Assembly (NCBI RefSeq): GCF_035084215.1
Contig: NC_090339.1
Location: 56,110,001-56,174,000, forward strand
Source: Heptranchias perlo
Lineage: Eukaryota
Direction of reading: 5' to 3'
Length of the DNA: 64,000 bases
Shown: one piece after another, positions 3,391 through 62,349 of the stretch
Layout of the letters: each line of letters starts with the position of its first letter
Numbering within the stretch: position 1 is the stretch's first letter
Position numbers and translations under genes: made by a program
Notes under the pieces: model-generated
What the model was told of the DNA's origin: nothing
The model's database searches: none
What the model saw: the letters and a program-made list of their open reading frames with translations, nothing else

Positions 3391-3465
3391 CAAACTGTTG
3401 GACCTGGTGTTGTAAGATTCCTTACATTTGTCCACCCCAGTCCATCACCGGCATCTCCACATTAT
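3391..3465 (+). mobile_element. 3'-terminal fragment of Penelope family A
   Basis: CCTGGTGTTGTAAGATTCCTTACATTTGTCCACCCCAGTCCATCACCGGCATCTCCACAT matches the tail of the other copies. Confidence 0.8.
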
Positions 3466-3587
3466 AATAAGATATTAAGATGTGTGTGTCACACGCTCCT
3501 TATTTAGGTATCACCATCCTGCCATACCATTAGGTGGCATCTTGATCAGATTTTCCCATTAAAAAGTGACCTGTCACATGGTCATGT

Positions 3588-3810
3588 TTGTAAACAATTT
3601 TACAACACCAAGTTATAGTCCAGCAATTTTATTTTAAATGCACAAGCTTTCGGAGGCTTCCTCCTTCGTCAGGTGAACGATGTTCACCTGACGAAGGAGG
3701 AAGCCTCCGAAAGCTTGTGAATTTAAAATAAAATTGCTGGACTATAACTTGGTGTTGTAAAATTGTTTACAATTGTCAACCCCAGTCCATCACCGGCATC
3801 TCCACATCAT
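3588..3810. mobile_element. Penelope-derived palindromic insertion (family A) with hammerhead motifs
   Basis: 91-bp inverted arms 3588-3678 and 3682-3772 (one mismatch), 38-nt tail; direct repeat CATGGTCATGTTTG at 3577-3590 and 3808-3821. Confidence 0.9.
3683..3721 (+). ncRNA. minimal type-I hammerhead ribozyme motif
   Basis: TTCAC-CTGACGA-A-GGAGG-aag-CCTCC-GAAA-GC-TT^GTGAA: helix I TTCAC/GTGAA, helix II GGAGG/CCTCC, palindromic helix III AAGCTT; mirror copy on the - strand. Confidence 0.8.
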
Positions 3811-5097
3811 GGTCATGTTTGGCATTCCACACTTCTACCATACGCTCCAGATCACCATACCAAACCTACAGCGTCACTAACGCACTCTGAAAGAAGTGTA
3901 TTTTGTCCTGACCTTCTTTGGGTAATGCTGCTAATGTTATGTATAATTCTGTTGATAATCATCTGCTTTATAATAATGTGTGCACATTATGCAAATTAAT
4001 TTGTCCTCTTTTATTTTTCTGAAAGCATAAAATAGTTTATTTTTAGCAACTTCCATCAGATTTTGCATATATTGTGGCAGGTATATTGATGCAGAGTAAG
4101 CTCCTTTGCAACACACCGTACTTCTTTTAAAATTCTACTTACAGACATTAGATAAAATGAAGCGCATTTATTTAAAGGAAGTTTTGATGAAAACAGCTCT
4201 CTGGGTATTGGGGCCAATTTATCAAGAATGCACAGTGTAATATTACTCAGGATCTATTATACACTTCCTTGGATATCATTGTGATGAACATACAAAATTG
4301 AAGGGCAGGAAAAGACCAGCTGGTCCATCAAGCCTGCCCCACACCGTGATGGCCAGACCATGGTGGCTAAATACTTCTTCCCTCCCCCGACCTCCTCCCC
4401 CTCCTCCCCCCCCCGCTACCATCCCCCCACCCTCCGCCGCCATCTAATCTCCTGGGAAAGGCAAAAAAAACTGAGAAAAGTCCCAGGTCAATAAGGGAAA
4501 AAATATACTGTAAAATTCCTCTCTAACCCCCTCAGGCGATCGAAACCAGTCCAGATCACATGGACTAAGTGTTACGAGATATATAAGTGTCCCGTGGAGC
4601 AATTATTCTTCTTTTATGGCAGTTTGGTAGGTTGTATAAATAATGTAAGTAATACAGTATGTAACTTGCCCCTGAAGCATGATAAAATTTGCAATATGGC
4701 CAAAAGAGCATTAAATTAGCAGGAATTCGCAGCTAAAATTAGTCCGTTGACAGGAATGACTTGATCCCTCAAATGTCACAGAACGAATGTAGCTAGAAGC
4801 ATTTTTGGTATTATTAATTTCCACTCCTTTAACAGAATATAATGAAGTGCAGTCTCCTATTCTACTACCTTCCCACCACATTATAGCACTTTCTCATGAT
4901 GATCCCTGATACAATGTTGTCTTTAGTGAAGTCCAAAAATGCAGACGCTATTAACTGCTAATACTTACAATAGCTACCTTACTAAATAATTTACTAAAAT
5001 AATTTGACAATAAAGTGAGAAGGTAATGAAAACATTGCAAGCACAAGCTTTTACATATTCTGGCACATGACTTTCATGTGAAATCTGATTAATATCC

Positions 5098-11800: not shown

Positions 11801-13558
11801 CAAAGAAACACTCACAATGAGTTATGAATCTTTCTCATTGTGAAATAGACTCCTGAGTATATCACAACCAGTACAATATCCTACTTCCTTCAATGGTTAA
11901 TCGTTTCACTACTAAGACGATAGATTTCATCAGCGTGAAAATCAGAAAGAAGCTACTGGGAATGACACACACATAAAATAACCAGAATATACTGACTGCC
12001 TGGTGATAGTGAGTTCCACACATTCCTCACTTATCACTGTTTGTATTTAGGTTGGGATTATGGACTGGCCAAGGTGCAAATTATTCTGTAAGGACTTTCC
12101 TGAAATCGCTATTCATTCTGCAAGACCTTCTCTCTCAGAACGGCTATGTTCCCGTTCAAATTGTAGTCGATTATCTTTGTCTGTCGAGCACAACAGAGTG
12201 TTACCTTACTTTAACTAGGGCTGTCACATTGAAAGCCAAATTCAGCCATGCAGCTGCTCAAGCCTTTTTGTTTCCCATTGAATTCTGCCATTCCAGATAA
12301 TGAAGAAAAAATAGATGTGGCTTTGGAAATCCAGTACATTAGTATTTTCATTATATACTTCTGTAAAAAAGACAAACTTTTTCCATTCCCGTCAATCGCC
12401 TTGAGACATTTTTCTGCATTAAAGGCGCTATATAAATGTAGGTTGATGTAACTACGGTGAACAATTTTCAGCAACTGAATTTATCTTGGAACTATAGGCT
12501 TGCCAAAATTCCTCATCTGAAAACGATAGGAAACTAATATAATTCTGTTTCATAATATGTATGAGCTTTGATATTTCCCTCTATAATTCAGTTAAATAAA
12601 TCCCAATGTTTTAAGGTTTAGAACAACAATTATTTGTGATCAAGCATTTATACACAATTTTGAATATCGCACCAAATTTTAAAGTGACGTCATCATCCCA
12701 TTATGGAGTTATCAGGTAGCATACATTTCTGAAACAAGCTTGCTCTGAAAAACCATGCTGGCCAATAGGGTAAGTCTGCATTATAAAAGATTGCACTGCT
12801 GCACAAGTAGCAACAGCATCTTTTGCAATGTGCTGTTATTTTGCTAGATTAAGATCAAAGCTTAGAAATGTGTGGGGATAGATAAGGTAGTATTATCAGA
12901 CCATTATTAAGTACATTTTTACATGCAAGATACTTAGCTTGGTAGATGATGGCCATTTAAACAACTGTGCCATAGTTTTCATAAAATGAAGGTTGCAATA
13001 TTGTATACTGAACCAGCAAATGTCACCTTTCATTATCTATTGTTACAATTTCCGGTTTTCTCTCAACAGATTCACAGTAGCATCCTTATCCTTTATCCCC
13101 AGCCATCTGAAAGCAGTATTTTATTGATAATCTGCCTTTGCAGAGCTCTGTAAGGTGATGATTAATATTACTGTTATTTGCAGTAATCTATTTACTGAAA
13201 TTACTCTAGTCTCGCTTGATCATACCACTCTGTTTAGATTGAACAGAATAATAGACACATACCTGAACTAGTCACATTTAAATACAAGGTGAATCACAAA
13301 AATACAGGACAACATTGAAATATAGTGAGTAACGTCCATAACGGGTTAATTACTCATTCCAATAACTTCCTCTGAAGAAATATAATAATATATTCTGTTT
13401 TGATAAATAAAGTTTTTGTAATCAGCAAAGTAATTCAACAGGTGGCATCTTCTCATACTTCCTTTGGCTCTGGGGGTTGGTTTGAATTAAGTTATGACAT
13501 ACATAAAATACGTTCCATGTTTCAGAGGTCGTCATAGAGCTCCCTCATAAAATTTGAT

Positions 13559-13777
13559 AATTGTAAACAATTTTACAACACCAAGTTATAGTCCAGCAAT
13601 TTTATTTTAAATTCACAAGCTTTCGGAGGCTACCTCCTTCGTCAGGTGAACGATGTGACGAAGGAGGTAGCCTCCGAAAGCTTGTGAATTTAAAATAAAA
13701 TTGCTGGACTATAACTTGGTGTTGTAAAATTGTTTACAATTGTCAACCCCAGTCCATCACCGGCATCTCCACATCAT
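13559..13777. mobile_element. Penelope-derived palindromic insertion (family A); hammerhead intact on - strand
   Basis: Inverted arms around ~13645-13655; TSD TCATAAAATTTGAT at 13545-13558 and 13774-13787; loop-II variant TAG in both arms. Confidence 0.9.
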
Positions 13778-15869: not shown

Positions 15870-16055
15870 AAATAAAAGCAAAATACAGTGGATGCTGGAA
15901 ATCTGAAATAAAGACTGAAAATGCTGGAAACACTCAGCAGGTCAGGCAGCATCTGTGGAGAGAGAGAAACATCTGCCTGAAACGCTAACTCTATTTTTCT
16001 CTCTCTCCAAAGATGCTGCCTGACCTGCTGAGTGTTTCCGGCATTTTCTGTTTTT
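15870..16055. mobile_element. fold-back element family B (probably Penelope-derived)
   Basis: Inverted arms ~15911-15969 and ~15996-16055 (ATGCTGGAAACACTCAGCAGGTCAGGCAGCATCT / AGATGCTGCCTGACCTGCTGAGTGTTTCC); hammerhead 3' remnant CCTGAAACGCTAAC. Confidence 0.75.
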
Positions 16056-16435: not shown

Positions 16436-16528
16436 TTCTTTTTAAGTAGTTCAGTTGTCAAGAAGGGAGAAAAGTATATTCTGCATCGTGACATCTTGGC
16501 AGTTGTTTCCAGTGACTAGATGAGTTGT

Positions 16529-16737
16529 CAAATGTAAGGACTTGCACAATACCAGGTTATAGTCCAACAGTTTTATTTTAAATCACAAGCTTTCGGAGCT
16601 TACCTCCTTCGTCACCTGACGAAGGAGGTAAGCTCTGAAAGCTTGTGATTTAAAATAAAACTGTTGGACTATAACCTGGTATTGTGCAAGTCCTTACATT
16701 TGTCCACCCCAGTCCATCACTGACATCTCCACATCAT
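16529..16737. mobile_element. Penelope-derived palindromic insertion (family A); + strand hammerhead 16612-16648
   Basis: Inverted arms centred ~16615; TSD TAGATGAGT at 16517-16525 and 16737-16745. Confidence 0.88.
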
Positions 16738-16924: not shown

Positions 16925-19260
16925 TGTAGCAAGCCCAACGAGAGGGAGAGCAGTTCTGGATTTAGTTTTAGGGAATGAAGCTGGTGGAAGGAGTATCAAT
17001 GGGGGAGCATTTTGTTGGTAGTGATCATAATTCAGTTAGATTTAGCATAGTTATGGAAAAGGACAGAGGTAGAACAGGAATAAAAGTTCTAAATTGGGGA
17101 AAGGCCAATTTTACTAAGCTGAGAAGTGATTTAGCGAAAGTAGACTGGAAACAGCTACTTGAAGGTAAATCAGTGTCAGAGCAGTTGGAGGCATTCAAGG
17201 AGGAGATTCAAGGGGTTCAGAGTAAACATGTTCCCACAAAGAGAAAGGGTGGGACTGCCAAGTCTAGAGCCCCCTGGATGACAAGGAGCATACAGGGTAA
17301 GATAAGGCAAAAAGGGGAAGCTTTGTCAAACACCAAGAGCTCAATATGGCAGAAAGCCTAGAGTGCAGAGTTGAAATTGAAAAGGAAATTAGGAAAGCAA
17401 AGAGAGGGCATGAAAAAATACTGGCAAGTAACATTAAGGGAAACCCCAAAATGTTTTATAAATACATAAAGAGCAGGAGGATAACTAAGGAAAGAGTAGG
17501 GCCTATTAGAGATCAAAAAGGTAACCTATGTGTGGAGGCGGAAGATGTGGGTATGGATCTTAATGAATACTTTGCGTCTGTCTTCACAAAAGAGAGGGAC
17601 GATGCAGTGATTGTAGTTAAGGAGGAGGAGTGTGAAATATTGGATGGGATAAACATAATGAGAGAGGAAGTATTAAGGGGTTTAGCATCTTTGAAAGTAG
17701 ATAAATCGCCAGGCCCGGATGAAATGTATCCCAAGCTGTTAAGAGAAGCAAGGGAGGAAATCATCATTTTCCAATCCTCCCTGGCTACAGGCATGATGCC
17801 AGAGTATTGGAGGACTGCTAACATTGTACTGTTGTTTAAAAAGGGAGAAAGAGATAGACCGAGTAATTATAGGCCAGTCAGTCTAACCTCGGTGGTGGGA
17901 AAGTTATTGAAATCGATTCTGAGGGACAGCATAAATCGTCATTTAGAAAGGCATGGGTTAATCAAGGACAGTCAGCATGGATTTGTTAAGGGAAGGTTTT
18001 GTCTGACTAACTTGATTGAATTTTTTGAGCGGGTAACAAGGAGGGTCGATGAGGGTAACACATTTGATGTAGTGTACATGGATTTTAGCAGGCTTTTGAC
18101 AAGGTCCTACACAGCAGATTGGTCAAAAAAGTACAAGCTCATGGGATCCAAGGGAAAGTGGCAAGTTGGTTCCAAAATTGGCTCAGTGGCAGGAAGCAAA
18201 GGGTAATGGTTGATGGGTGTTTTTGCGACTGGAAGGCTGTTTCCAGTGGGGTCCCGCAATGCTCAGTACTAGGTCCTTTACTTTTTGTGGTATATATTAA
18301 TGATTTGGATTTGAATGTAGGGGGCTTGATCAAGAAGTTTGCAGATGATACAAAAATTGGCCATGTGGTTGATAGTGAGGAGGAAAGCTGTAGACTGCAG
18401 GAAGATAGCAATGGACTGGTCAGGTGGGCAGGACAGTGGAAAATGGAATTCAATCCAGAGAAGTTTGAGGTAATGCATTTGGAGAAGGCAAACAAGGCAA
18501 GGGAATACACAATAAATGGGAGGATACTGAGAGGTGTAGAGGAACAGAGGGACCTTGGAATGCATGTCCACAGATCCCTAAACATAGGTAGGTAAGGTGG
18601 TTAAAAAGGCATACAGAATACTTGCCTTTATTAGCTGAGGCATAGAATATAAGAGCAGGGAAGTTATGCTAGAACTGTATAAAATGCTAGTTAGGCCACA
18701 GCTTGAGTACTGCGAACAGTTCTGGTCATCACATTACAGGAAAGATGTGATTGCACTAGACAGGACACAGAGGAGATTTACCAGGATGTTGCCAGGGCTA
18801 AAGAATTTTAGCTATGGGAAAAGATTGGATAGGCTGGAGTTGTTTTCTTTGGAACAAAGGAGGCTGAGGGGAAATTTAATTGGGGTATATAAAATTATGA
18901 TGGGACTAGAAAGAGTGGGTAGGAAGGACCTATTTTCCTTTAGCAGAGGGGTCAGTGACCAGGGGGCATCGATTTAAAGTAATTGGTGGAAGGATTAGAT
19001 GGGAGCTGAGGAGAAATCTTGTCACCCAGAGGGCGGTGGGGGTCTGGAACTCACTGCCTGAAAGGGTGGTAGAGGCTGAAACCCTCAACTCATTTAAAAA
19101 GTACTTGGATGTGCACTTGAAGTGCCGTAACCTACAGGGCTTCGGACCAAGTGCTGGAAAGTGGGAGTAAGCTGGAAAGCTCTTTATCGGCCGGCGCAGG
19201 CACGCTAGGTTGAATGGCCACCTTCTGTGCCGTAAATTTCTATGATTCTATGATTCTATA
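16925..19260 (+). mobile_element. 5'-truncated CR1 LINE ORF2
   Basis: SDHN, KSPGPD, NYRPVSLTS, QHGF, FADD, LEYC motifs; (TATGATTC)n tail. Confidence 0.95.
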
Positions 19261-25814: not shown

Positions 25815-25949
25815 CATAAGCTAGTAAATCTGAAGATTTTAAGCACGCACAAATCCACAAAATATCCACGGTAAGGAGAGAATTTGGAAAGCAAGGCTGA
25901 AATCAACATCTATCCAATGTAATTCATCCTTCTCCAAGAAGTATCCAAT

Positions 25950-27285
25950 CAAAAAAGGGGAGAGGGATAAACCCGGCAATTACAAGCCAGTCAGCCTCAC
26001 GTTGGTGTGGAAACCTTTAGAGACAATAATACGGGACAAAATTAATTGTCACTTGGAAAAATATGGGTTAATAAATGACAGCCAGCACGGATTTGTTAAA
26101 GGCAAATCGTGTTTGACTAACTTGATTGATTTCTTTGGTGAAGTAACAGAGAGGGTTGATGAGGGTAGTACAGTTGGTGTTGTGTATATGGGCTTTCAAA
26201 AGGCATTTGATAAAGTGCCACATAATAGACTCGTTAGCAAAATTGAAGCCCATGGGATTAAAGGGTCAGTGGCAGAGTGGATACAAAATTGGCTAAGGGA
26301 CAGAAATCAGAGAGTAGTGGCGAATGGTTGTTTTTCAAACTGGAGGGAAGTATTCAGTGGTGTTCCCCAGGGGTCAGTATTAGGACCACTGCTCTTTTTG
26401 ATATATATTAATGACCTGGACTTGGGTATGGAGGGTATAATTTCAAAGTTTGCAGATGACACGCAGCTCGGAAATGCAGTAAACAATGAGGAGGATAGTA
26501 ACAGACTTCAGGAGAACATAGACAGACTGGTGAAATGGGCAGATACATGGCAGATGAAATTTAACATAAAGAAGTGTGAAGTGATGCATTTTGGTAGGAA
26601 GAATGAGGAGAGGCAATATAAACTAAATGGTACAATTTTAAAAGGGGATGCAGGATCAGAGAGACCTGGGGGTGTACGTACACAAATCTTTGAGAGTGGC
26701 TGGATGAGTTGAGAAGGCTGTTAAAAAAGCATATGGGATCCTTGGCTTTATAAACAGAGGCATAGACTACAAAAGCAAGGATGCTATGCTAAACCTTTAT
26801 AAAACACTGGTTAGGCCCCATCTGGAGTATTGTATCCAATTTGGGGACCACACTTTAAGAAGGATGTCAAGACCTTAGACAGGGTGCAGAGAAGGTTTAC
26901 TGGAATGGTATCAGGGATGAGGGACTTCAGTTATGTGGAGAGGCTGGAGAAGCTGGGGTTGTTCTCCTTAGAACAGAGAAGGTTAAGGGGAGATTTGATA
27001 GATGTGTTCAAAATCATGAAGAGTTTTGATAGAGTGAATAAGGAGAAACTGTTTCCAGTGGCAGAAGGGTCGGTAACCAGAGGACACAGATTTAAGGTGA
27101 TTGGCAAAAGAGCCAGAGGCAAGATGAAGAGAAATTTTTTTACATAGCGAGTTGTTATGATCTGGAATGCACTGCCTGAAAGGGTGGCGGAAGCAGATTA
27201 AATAATTTTCAAAAGGGAATTGGATAAATACATGAAGGGGAAAAATTTCCAGGGCTGTGGGGAAAGGGCAGAGGAGTGGGACTAA
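25950..27285 (+). mobile_element. CR1 LINE RT and 3' end
   Basis: [36 protein letters not shown] motifs. Confidence 0.93.

Positions 27286-28066: not shown

Positions 28067-62349
<34,283 letters not shown>

Follow-up and report, generated by a model that had tools for sequence, protein, structure and literature searches.

The window, a 64-kb stretch of DNA, contains five fold-back insertions of about 200 bp, each with a minimal hammerhead motif, a 38-nt tail on one side only, and TSDs of 14, 14, 9, 11 and 11 bp in coordinate order. All five had been picked out in an earlier note on this DNA and were re-found in a scripted re-check of the sequence. The hairpin at 3588-3810 has arms of 91 nt that are 99% complementary, separated by a loop of 3 nt, and hairpin folding gives z = -24.1 (0 of 200 shuffles as good). 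It begins with a tailless inverted arm (3588-3678, minus strand), which is a copy of the 3' end of a Penelope-like element (PLE), starting about 56 nt past the predicted cut site of the hammerhead and reaching back to 40 nt before it. The head-to-head junction, which is the 3-nt loop (3679-3681), follows and falls 5-11 nt short of where transcription is predicted to start in its subfamily; next comes the direct arm (3682-3772, plus strand), which is the 3' part of a pLTR and is 99% identical to the intact PLE copy L115. The AC-rich one-sided tail of 38 nt (3773-3810, plus strand) ends, in tandem copies, on the AT of the ATG of the ORF. The insertion is flanked by TSD copies (plus strand) at 3577-3590 and 3808-3821, 14 bp at most, each overlapping the end of the element by 3 nt.

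The direct arm contains a predicted minimal type-I hammerhead (3683-3721, plus strand; motif match), consisting of helix I (3683-3687/3717-3721), CUGACGA (3688-3694), an extra A (3695), helix II (3696-3700/3704-3708), GAAA (3709-3712) and a palindromic AAGCUU, with the cut predicted after 3716. The minus-strand core of this hairpin has a mismatch in helix I (GUGCA). Three of the other copies have the tail on the right (all plus strand): 13554-13777, with a TSD of at most 14 bp and an intact core confined to the minus arm; 16524-16737, of the older subfamily, with a 9-bp TSD and its intact core confined to the plus arm; and 34983-35199, also of the older subfamily, with an 11-bp TSD and both cores. 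The fifth, 57495-57697 (minus strand; tail left; 11-bp TSD), is asymmetric, its tailed arm ending 7 nt before the cut site while the other arm reaches 42 nt. As the earlier note had it, the CUGAnGA...GAAAGCUU core is present on both strands at 3588 and 34983; it is present on one strand in the remaining three.

Two solo copies of the same family had been overlooked: a 64-bp 3' end with tail, of the older subfamily (3402-3465, plus strand), and a 5'-truncated copy of 920 bp (45850-46769, minus strand; 92% identity to L115), which holds the GIY-YIG end of the ORF, the 3' UTR, a full pLTR, the hammerhead and the tail. The window also contains an exon of a CLOCK-family PAS gene (45106-45225, plus strand; phmmer E 1e-9 to CLOCK structures), in keeping with a vertebrate genome, perhaps that of a shark, and the PLE copies near it may be intronic. 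Tandem repeats with units of 28 bp and 25 bp lie at 53769-54236 and 40928-41152, respectively. The segments at 17301-18595, 25843-26712, 44037-44558 and 57990-58877 we take, from their translations, to be CR1-type LINE ORF fragments. An imperfect hairpin at 15933-16033 gives a weak match to a miRNA model, below its gathering score.

The family is abundant in the 3.25-Gb genome that was searched. A 24-mer from one arm has 48,126 exact genome matches (control, 0), and 40 of the first 100 listed matches fall in 20 short head-to-head pairs, three of which represent one tandem duplication. Extrapolated from this share, short hairpins number of the order of 10^4 genome-wide, in agreement with the abundance that the earlier note had proposed. 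Stretches sampled by position hold 12 short hairpins in the 334 kb surrounding the window, and 5 in 800 kb taken from elsewhere. The sample comprises 1.61 Mb, of which 1.13 Mb was taken by position and the rest around listed matches, including 55 loci chosen for an intact ribozyme. It yielded 92 head-to-head pairs after removal of duplicates, and 273 arms; 252 of these were scored, and the other 21 were set aside as duplicates, as too close to an edge or because their start lay too far 3'.

The parent element is represented in neighbouring DNA by a 2.66-kb insertion in which an RT ORF is flanked by the same two ends as the hairpins. A genome search gave 47,346 candidates; all of the 73 that were scored show 99-100% identity, and the full 918-aa frame is present in 18 of them. 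At L115 the arrangement is pLTR-ORF-pLTR; the ORF, counted from the ATG where the tail ends, is 902 aa long. Partial-tandem direct repeats of the pLTR with a period of 3066 bp are found at L115 and L124. The ORF start is entered by 23 of 273 arms, through read-on from the pLTR. The 902-aa ORF has a Pfam RVT_1 match (E 3e-10) with DKG and YIDD motifs, a CX4CxxC linker (CHGNLCKTC, residue 753) and, at the C terminus, a GIY-YIG domain recognised by motif alone (VVY..YIG, NGH, GEH; CCHH-like); the Pfam search of this ORF gave no match to GIY-YIG endonuclease, and its comparison with solved structures gave no match. A CX2-5CxxC linker between RT and EN marks Neptune/Nematis PLEs, according to PMC8557442. 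The parent is a young EN+ PLE, of Neptune type judging from the linker motif. The family, at L115:580-3285 and 72 other loci, is very young and possibly still active. The L115 pLTR is 99% identical to window positions 3683-3810, and the Penelope origin suggested earlier is supported.

The layout of the insertions is uniform. The tail is on exactly one side in 89 of 92 pairs, and a TSD of at least 7 bp is present in 83 of 92 pairs (3 of 92 controls), mostly 11-14 bp in length. The 3' end of the tailed arm lies at +92-94 in 87 of 92 pairs, and that of the tailless arm mostly at +54-58 (59 of 92). Of the 92 pairs, 73 are short; the other 19, with cut sites 253-5942 bp apart, share the tail and TSD layout of the short hairpins. 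The window hairpins are the shortest members of a continuum of head-to-head PLE insertions of up to 6 kb. The same process produces multi-kb palindromes of back-to-back near-full ORFs, with open frames of 735/735 aa on opposite strands at G000:C5:123694995-123698930, 744/744 aa at C6:9716716-9720951 and 727/727 aa at C28:46512379-46516290. The pattern corresponds to that published for PLE insertions, an inverted 5'-truncated copy with a one-sided tail of 30-40 bp, as given in PMC8557442 and PMC3846280.

The hammerhead has both cores (CUGAnGA and GAAA), helix I, helix II, an NUH site and the palindromic link, all in line with the minimal-hammerhead consensus, in support of the minimal hammerhead reported earlier. 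The core pattern has 228 matches in the sampled loci and 0 in 868 kb of shuffled sequence, while an Rfam scan of the window returned no hammerhead family at E<=1, only miRNA-hairpin matches below gathering score. Across 18 haplotypes, 95.6% of cells are paired (0 of 500 shuffles as high), a figure of modest weight since these are related sequences picked by the core pattern; two-sided changes occur in 5 of 10 hammerhead pairs, most from one divergent copy, and position 7 varies between C and G. Cleavage of minimal hammerheads as dimers is reported (Lunse et al. 2017, cited through the review PMC6765202). A single plus arm is predicted to fold helices I and II at 0.99 (3588) and 0.86 (34983), and the minus arms are predicted to fold helix I less well (0.27 and 0.02, respectively). 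The suggestion that a sense ribozyme would result whichever strand is transcribed is not supported: the antisense arm is made first either way, and in whole-hairpin RNA of either strand the ribozyme helices have a pair probability of 0.0 (-156 to -172 kcal/mol), so that in read-through RNA the ribozyme is predicted to be locked within the long stem. Nor are cores on both strands a general rule, being found in 41 of 73 short pairs overall, a share inflated by selection, and in 21 of 43 from unselected loci; the ribozyme would be on both arms solely because it lies between the predicted start site and the tail. A signature of cleavage in vivo was considered and rejected: a few copies hint at it, but genome-wide, among tens of thousands of arms, 167 have a non-T before the cut-site G and 132 have one a base further upstream, which is no end excess. 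Real truncations account for 26 of the first 30 of these 167 arms.

The upstream ends of the arms, expressed as nt 5' of the predicted cut site (C3 of CUGA is then at 29), are strongly clustered. They fall at 28-51 nt in 137 of the 252 scored arms, in 76 of 161 when ribozyme-selected loci are left out, in 23 of 56 obtained by position sampling alone and in 31 of 77 solo arms. Among the 161 unselected arms, the hazard of ending is 0.023-0.039 per nt at 28-51 nt, compared with 0.001-0.006 elsewhere. A TATA-like box is present in 42 of 51 ORF-linked pLTRs. For 104 ends at 28-60 nt the best parent has a placed TATA box; counted from the first T of TATAAA, 44 of these ends come 29-31 nt further on, 23 of them at exactly 30. 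The fold-back points are therefore non-random, as the earlier note had anticipated, but their anchor is the TATA box. RNA polymerase II promoters start transcription at about TATA+30, and we infer from these DNA end points that the PLE transcript starts there.

Comparison of subfamilies indicates what the ends follow. The end mode is at 39 nt where the TATA box is at 69 (7 of 19), and at 45-46 nt where it is at 75/76 (21 of 60). Exact genome counts of subfamily A fall from 9,991 to 6,983 to 6,082 at 39, 46 and 53 nt (-30%, -13%), and those of subfamily B from 6,389 to 3,229 to 2,539 at 46, 53 and 60 nt (-49%, -21%), although variants within a subfamily likewise reduce such counts, and the B-60 pattern lacks nesting at its 3' end. 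For the same ribozyme-relative step, 46 to 53 nt, A thus drops 13% whereas B drops 49%; the steep step shifts with the TATA box between the subfamilies, and hence the end point follows the TATA box and not the ribozyme. The description of the element as ribozyme-centred is accordingly not supported, since the ends track TATA+30 and shift by 7 nt between subfamilies while the ribozyme stays put. In the sampled arms themselves the end points of A and B do not differ significantly by rank test (p = 0.097); a Fisher test gives p = 0.016, with bins chosen post hoc. Short palindromes at 40-49 nt form a second end hot spot in subfamily A. A 3' splice site at the ends was rejected (no common upstream exon after the ends, and no AG before them), and numbers are too small to weigh a cap-templated G, which precedes the arm in 7 of the 12 subfamily-B cases listed with an end at A46. 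PLE transcription start sites are reported within the pLTR in PMC8557442, while Penelope of D. virilis uses an internal promoter that lacks a TATA box (PMC2377424), so that the TATA type of promoter is not general to PLEs.

We consider the hairpins to be dead-end insertions of the young Neptune-type PLE, probably formed from run-off cDNAs of its uncleaved RNA, the pile-up of arm 5' ends at TATA+30 likely arising because the RT ran off the 5' end of this RNA. In the proposed mechanism, the TATA promoter of the pLTR, whose box and spacing are observed, would start the RNA 10-17 nt before the hammerhead core. The GIY-YIG endonuclease would then make the staggered cut of 11-14 bp that is recorded by the TSDs, and cDNA would be primed by both DNA ends, one at the tail end and one at the tail start, consistent with the two positions of the arm 3' ends at +92-94 and +54-58. 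The anole element initiates internally in vitro at two tail borders and on both strands (PMC11167929). Priming at a tail close to the RNA 5' end would lead to run-off after about 135 or 100 nt, and the two cDNA ends would be trimmed and joined through microhomology of 1-4 nt or filler, as the junction anatomy suggests (1-4-nt overlaps in 26 of 70 pairs, or filler). The more specific version, in which a dimeric RT-endonuclease primes both strands at the tail borders and the cDNAs reach the capped TATA+30 start and join head-to-head, giving some 10^4 perfect 90-bp hairpins, has in our estimation an even chance of being correct.

At three loci (L165, at 16346 in joined T164; L145; L194), the junction filler is 20-200 bp long and foreign or templated, including simple repeats and a piece of the ORF end.

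The strongest rival, in our opinion unlikely, is a fold-back process, with parent and end point unchanged, in which one run-off cDNA snaps back at a short palindrome or a stretch of microhomology to serve as its own template, while endonuclease resolution accounts for the tail. Self-priming at palindromes was proposed in PMC3846280, and several junctions do lie on palindromes such as AGGAGCTCCT or GATC. The arms are concordant at subfamily-diagnostic sites in 46 of 57 comparable pairs, which fold-back copying also predicts, and the lengths of the two arms are coupled: a long arm is joined to a short one in 1 pair where 14.7 such pairs were expected (0 of 10,000 permutations; rho 0.58, n=84). 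This coupling needs one shared RNA or paired loading, two independent RNAs being insufficient; it is the weakest part of the two-cDNA model and also fits fold-back. Against fold-back, 28 of 70 pairs have a tailless arm that extends beyond the tailed one on the 5' side by at least 4 nt, 21 show the reverse and 21 have arms within 3 nt of each other; the 28 contradict copying from the tailed cDNA, for which no such pairs are predicted. Furthermore, the two arms carry different subfamily alleles in 11 of the 57 pairs, 5 of which differ at more than one site (one of the 5 may represent two adjacent insertions), and 19 of 29 arm differences are on common alleles, which make up 8 of 99 possible changes. 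Random pairing of arms would give 85% discordant pairs. The arms thus usually derive from one source and sometimes from two, or were converted later; gene conversion could explain the discordant pairs.

Less likely still is ordinary 5' truncation, in which, independently of the start site, an RT copying a long 3' RNA would stall or fall off where the hammerhead is folded or bound by protein. Ends that spread across 28-51 nt, immediately 5' of the core, with 37 of 252 at 28-35 nt, would suit such stalling, but the 7-nt move of the end mode with the TATA box would not, and ends accumulate neither at the cut site nor in helix II, where 8 lie at 20-27 nt.

The central junctions also bear on whether the hairpins are propagated as such. 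Short pairs whose cut sites are 40-140 bp apart show 58 distinct central junction strings, the commonest occurring 3 times (a tandem duplication) and 2 times. A perfect junction at A46 is present at 5 loci among the first 100 listed matches, in two parent subfamilies, and thus arises repeatedly. At L167-L168, a hairpin and a solo copy share a segment that occurs three times as a tandem duplication. No head-to-tail arrays of the hairpin were seen, the short elements being head-to-head pairs or solos, and, where a MITE has symmetric ends, a fixed short TSD and one fixed unit with a common internal junction, these hairpins have a one-sided tail, a variable TSD of 11-14 bp and the diverse junctions just described. 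The earlier proposal of a unit in its own right, a non-autonomous, ribozyme-centred hairpin (retrozyme- or MITE-like) copied as such and giving active ribozyme from either strand, could draw on abundance, clustered ends, the frequent pairs of cores, the recurring A46 junction and the preserved helix pairing, but it is highly improbable and already largely refuted, since the junctions are almost all unique, the recurring one spans two subfamilies, the promoter is absent from 75 of 75 short hairpins (TATAAATGCG is kept in none), the ends follow TATA and not the core, the ribozyme helices have zero probability in hairpin RNA, and helix conservation is accounted for by selection in the autonomous parent.

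The hairpins are therefore a described kind of PLE insertion debris and not a ribozyme-centred element. The mechanistic part, the likely run-off at the transcription start and the joining of two separately primed cDNAs, looks new: TATA+30 anchoring of ends and signs of two primed cDNAs were not found in the open literature searched, which took in few subscription papers and did not include Repbase. A young and abundant family provides counts that separate the models with respect to start-site run-off, two templates and no use of cleaved RNA, and the exact positions named here could be examined in the existing in vitro PLE system. If the proposal is correct, dual-priming run-off would explain the long-known layout of inverted copy plus tail, PLE promoters would be mappable from DNA alone, the TATA+30 cDNA would be a strong-stop-like product, and the hairpins would be a genomic footprint of PLE integration. 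They would also be a large dispersed source of intronic double-stranded RNA; speculatively, some 10^4 near-perfect 90-bp hairpins, some of them near or within host genes, could feed dsRNA pathways.

Several known systems resemble these insertions in part. In LINE-1 twin priming, both nicked target strands prime cDNA, leading to an inversion inside the TSD, and each cDNA has a different part of the RNA as its template. By contrast, the two hairpin cDNAs proposed here copy one common stretch, offset by the tail, and the product is therefore a hairpin, unlike that of LINE-1. The complex insertions of EN+ PLEs (Craig et al. 2021, PMC8557442; Arkhipova et al. 2013, PMC3846280), as far as the accessible parts of these papers describe them, are alike in the head-to-head copy, the tail at one end (here in 89 of 92 pairs), the TSD of 9-14 bp, the pLTR hammerhead and the palindromes or microhomology at the junctions. 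They differ in that the commonest product here is minimal, with arms of about 100 and 135 nt and no ORF, and ends at TATA+30. The metazoan PLE minimal hammerheads studied by Cervera and De la Pena (2014, PMC4209133) share the short helix I, the extra nucleotide before helix II, G10.1-C11.1, the lack of helix III and the palindromic 15.2-16.2. Dual motifs, one on each strand at a distance of about 100-700 bp, were reported in that study together with numerous solo motifs derived from truncated PLEs, whereas the predicted cores here are nearer, about 10-40 bp apart.

PAc, the Poseidon element of Anolis carolinensis characterised by Frangieh et al. (2024, PMC11167929), is alike in having two RT start sites that bound the tail, nicking and extension of both target strands, an uncleaved RNA template and no cut-site ends, and its protein is a predicted dimer. 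Inverted products were outside the scope of that study. PAc belongs to the Penelope/Poseidon clade and has its ATG inside the ribozyme, whereas the element described here has the CX4CxxC linker and an ATG at the tail end. Lastly, the non-LTR retrozymes of animals (bioRxiv 10.64898/2026.07.22.740005) are likewise non-coding, pLTR-derived and equipped with a type-I hammerhead; they form head-to-tail tandem arrays of a repeated unit, whereas the present hairpins are single head-to-head inversions with unique junctions.
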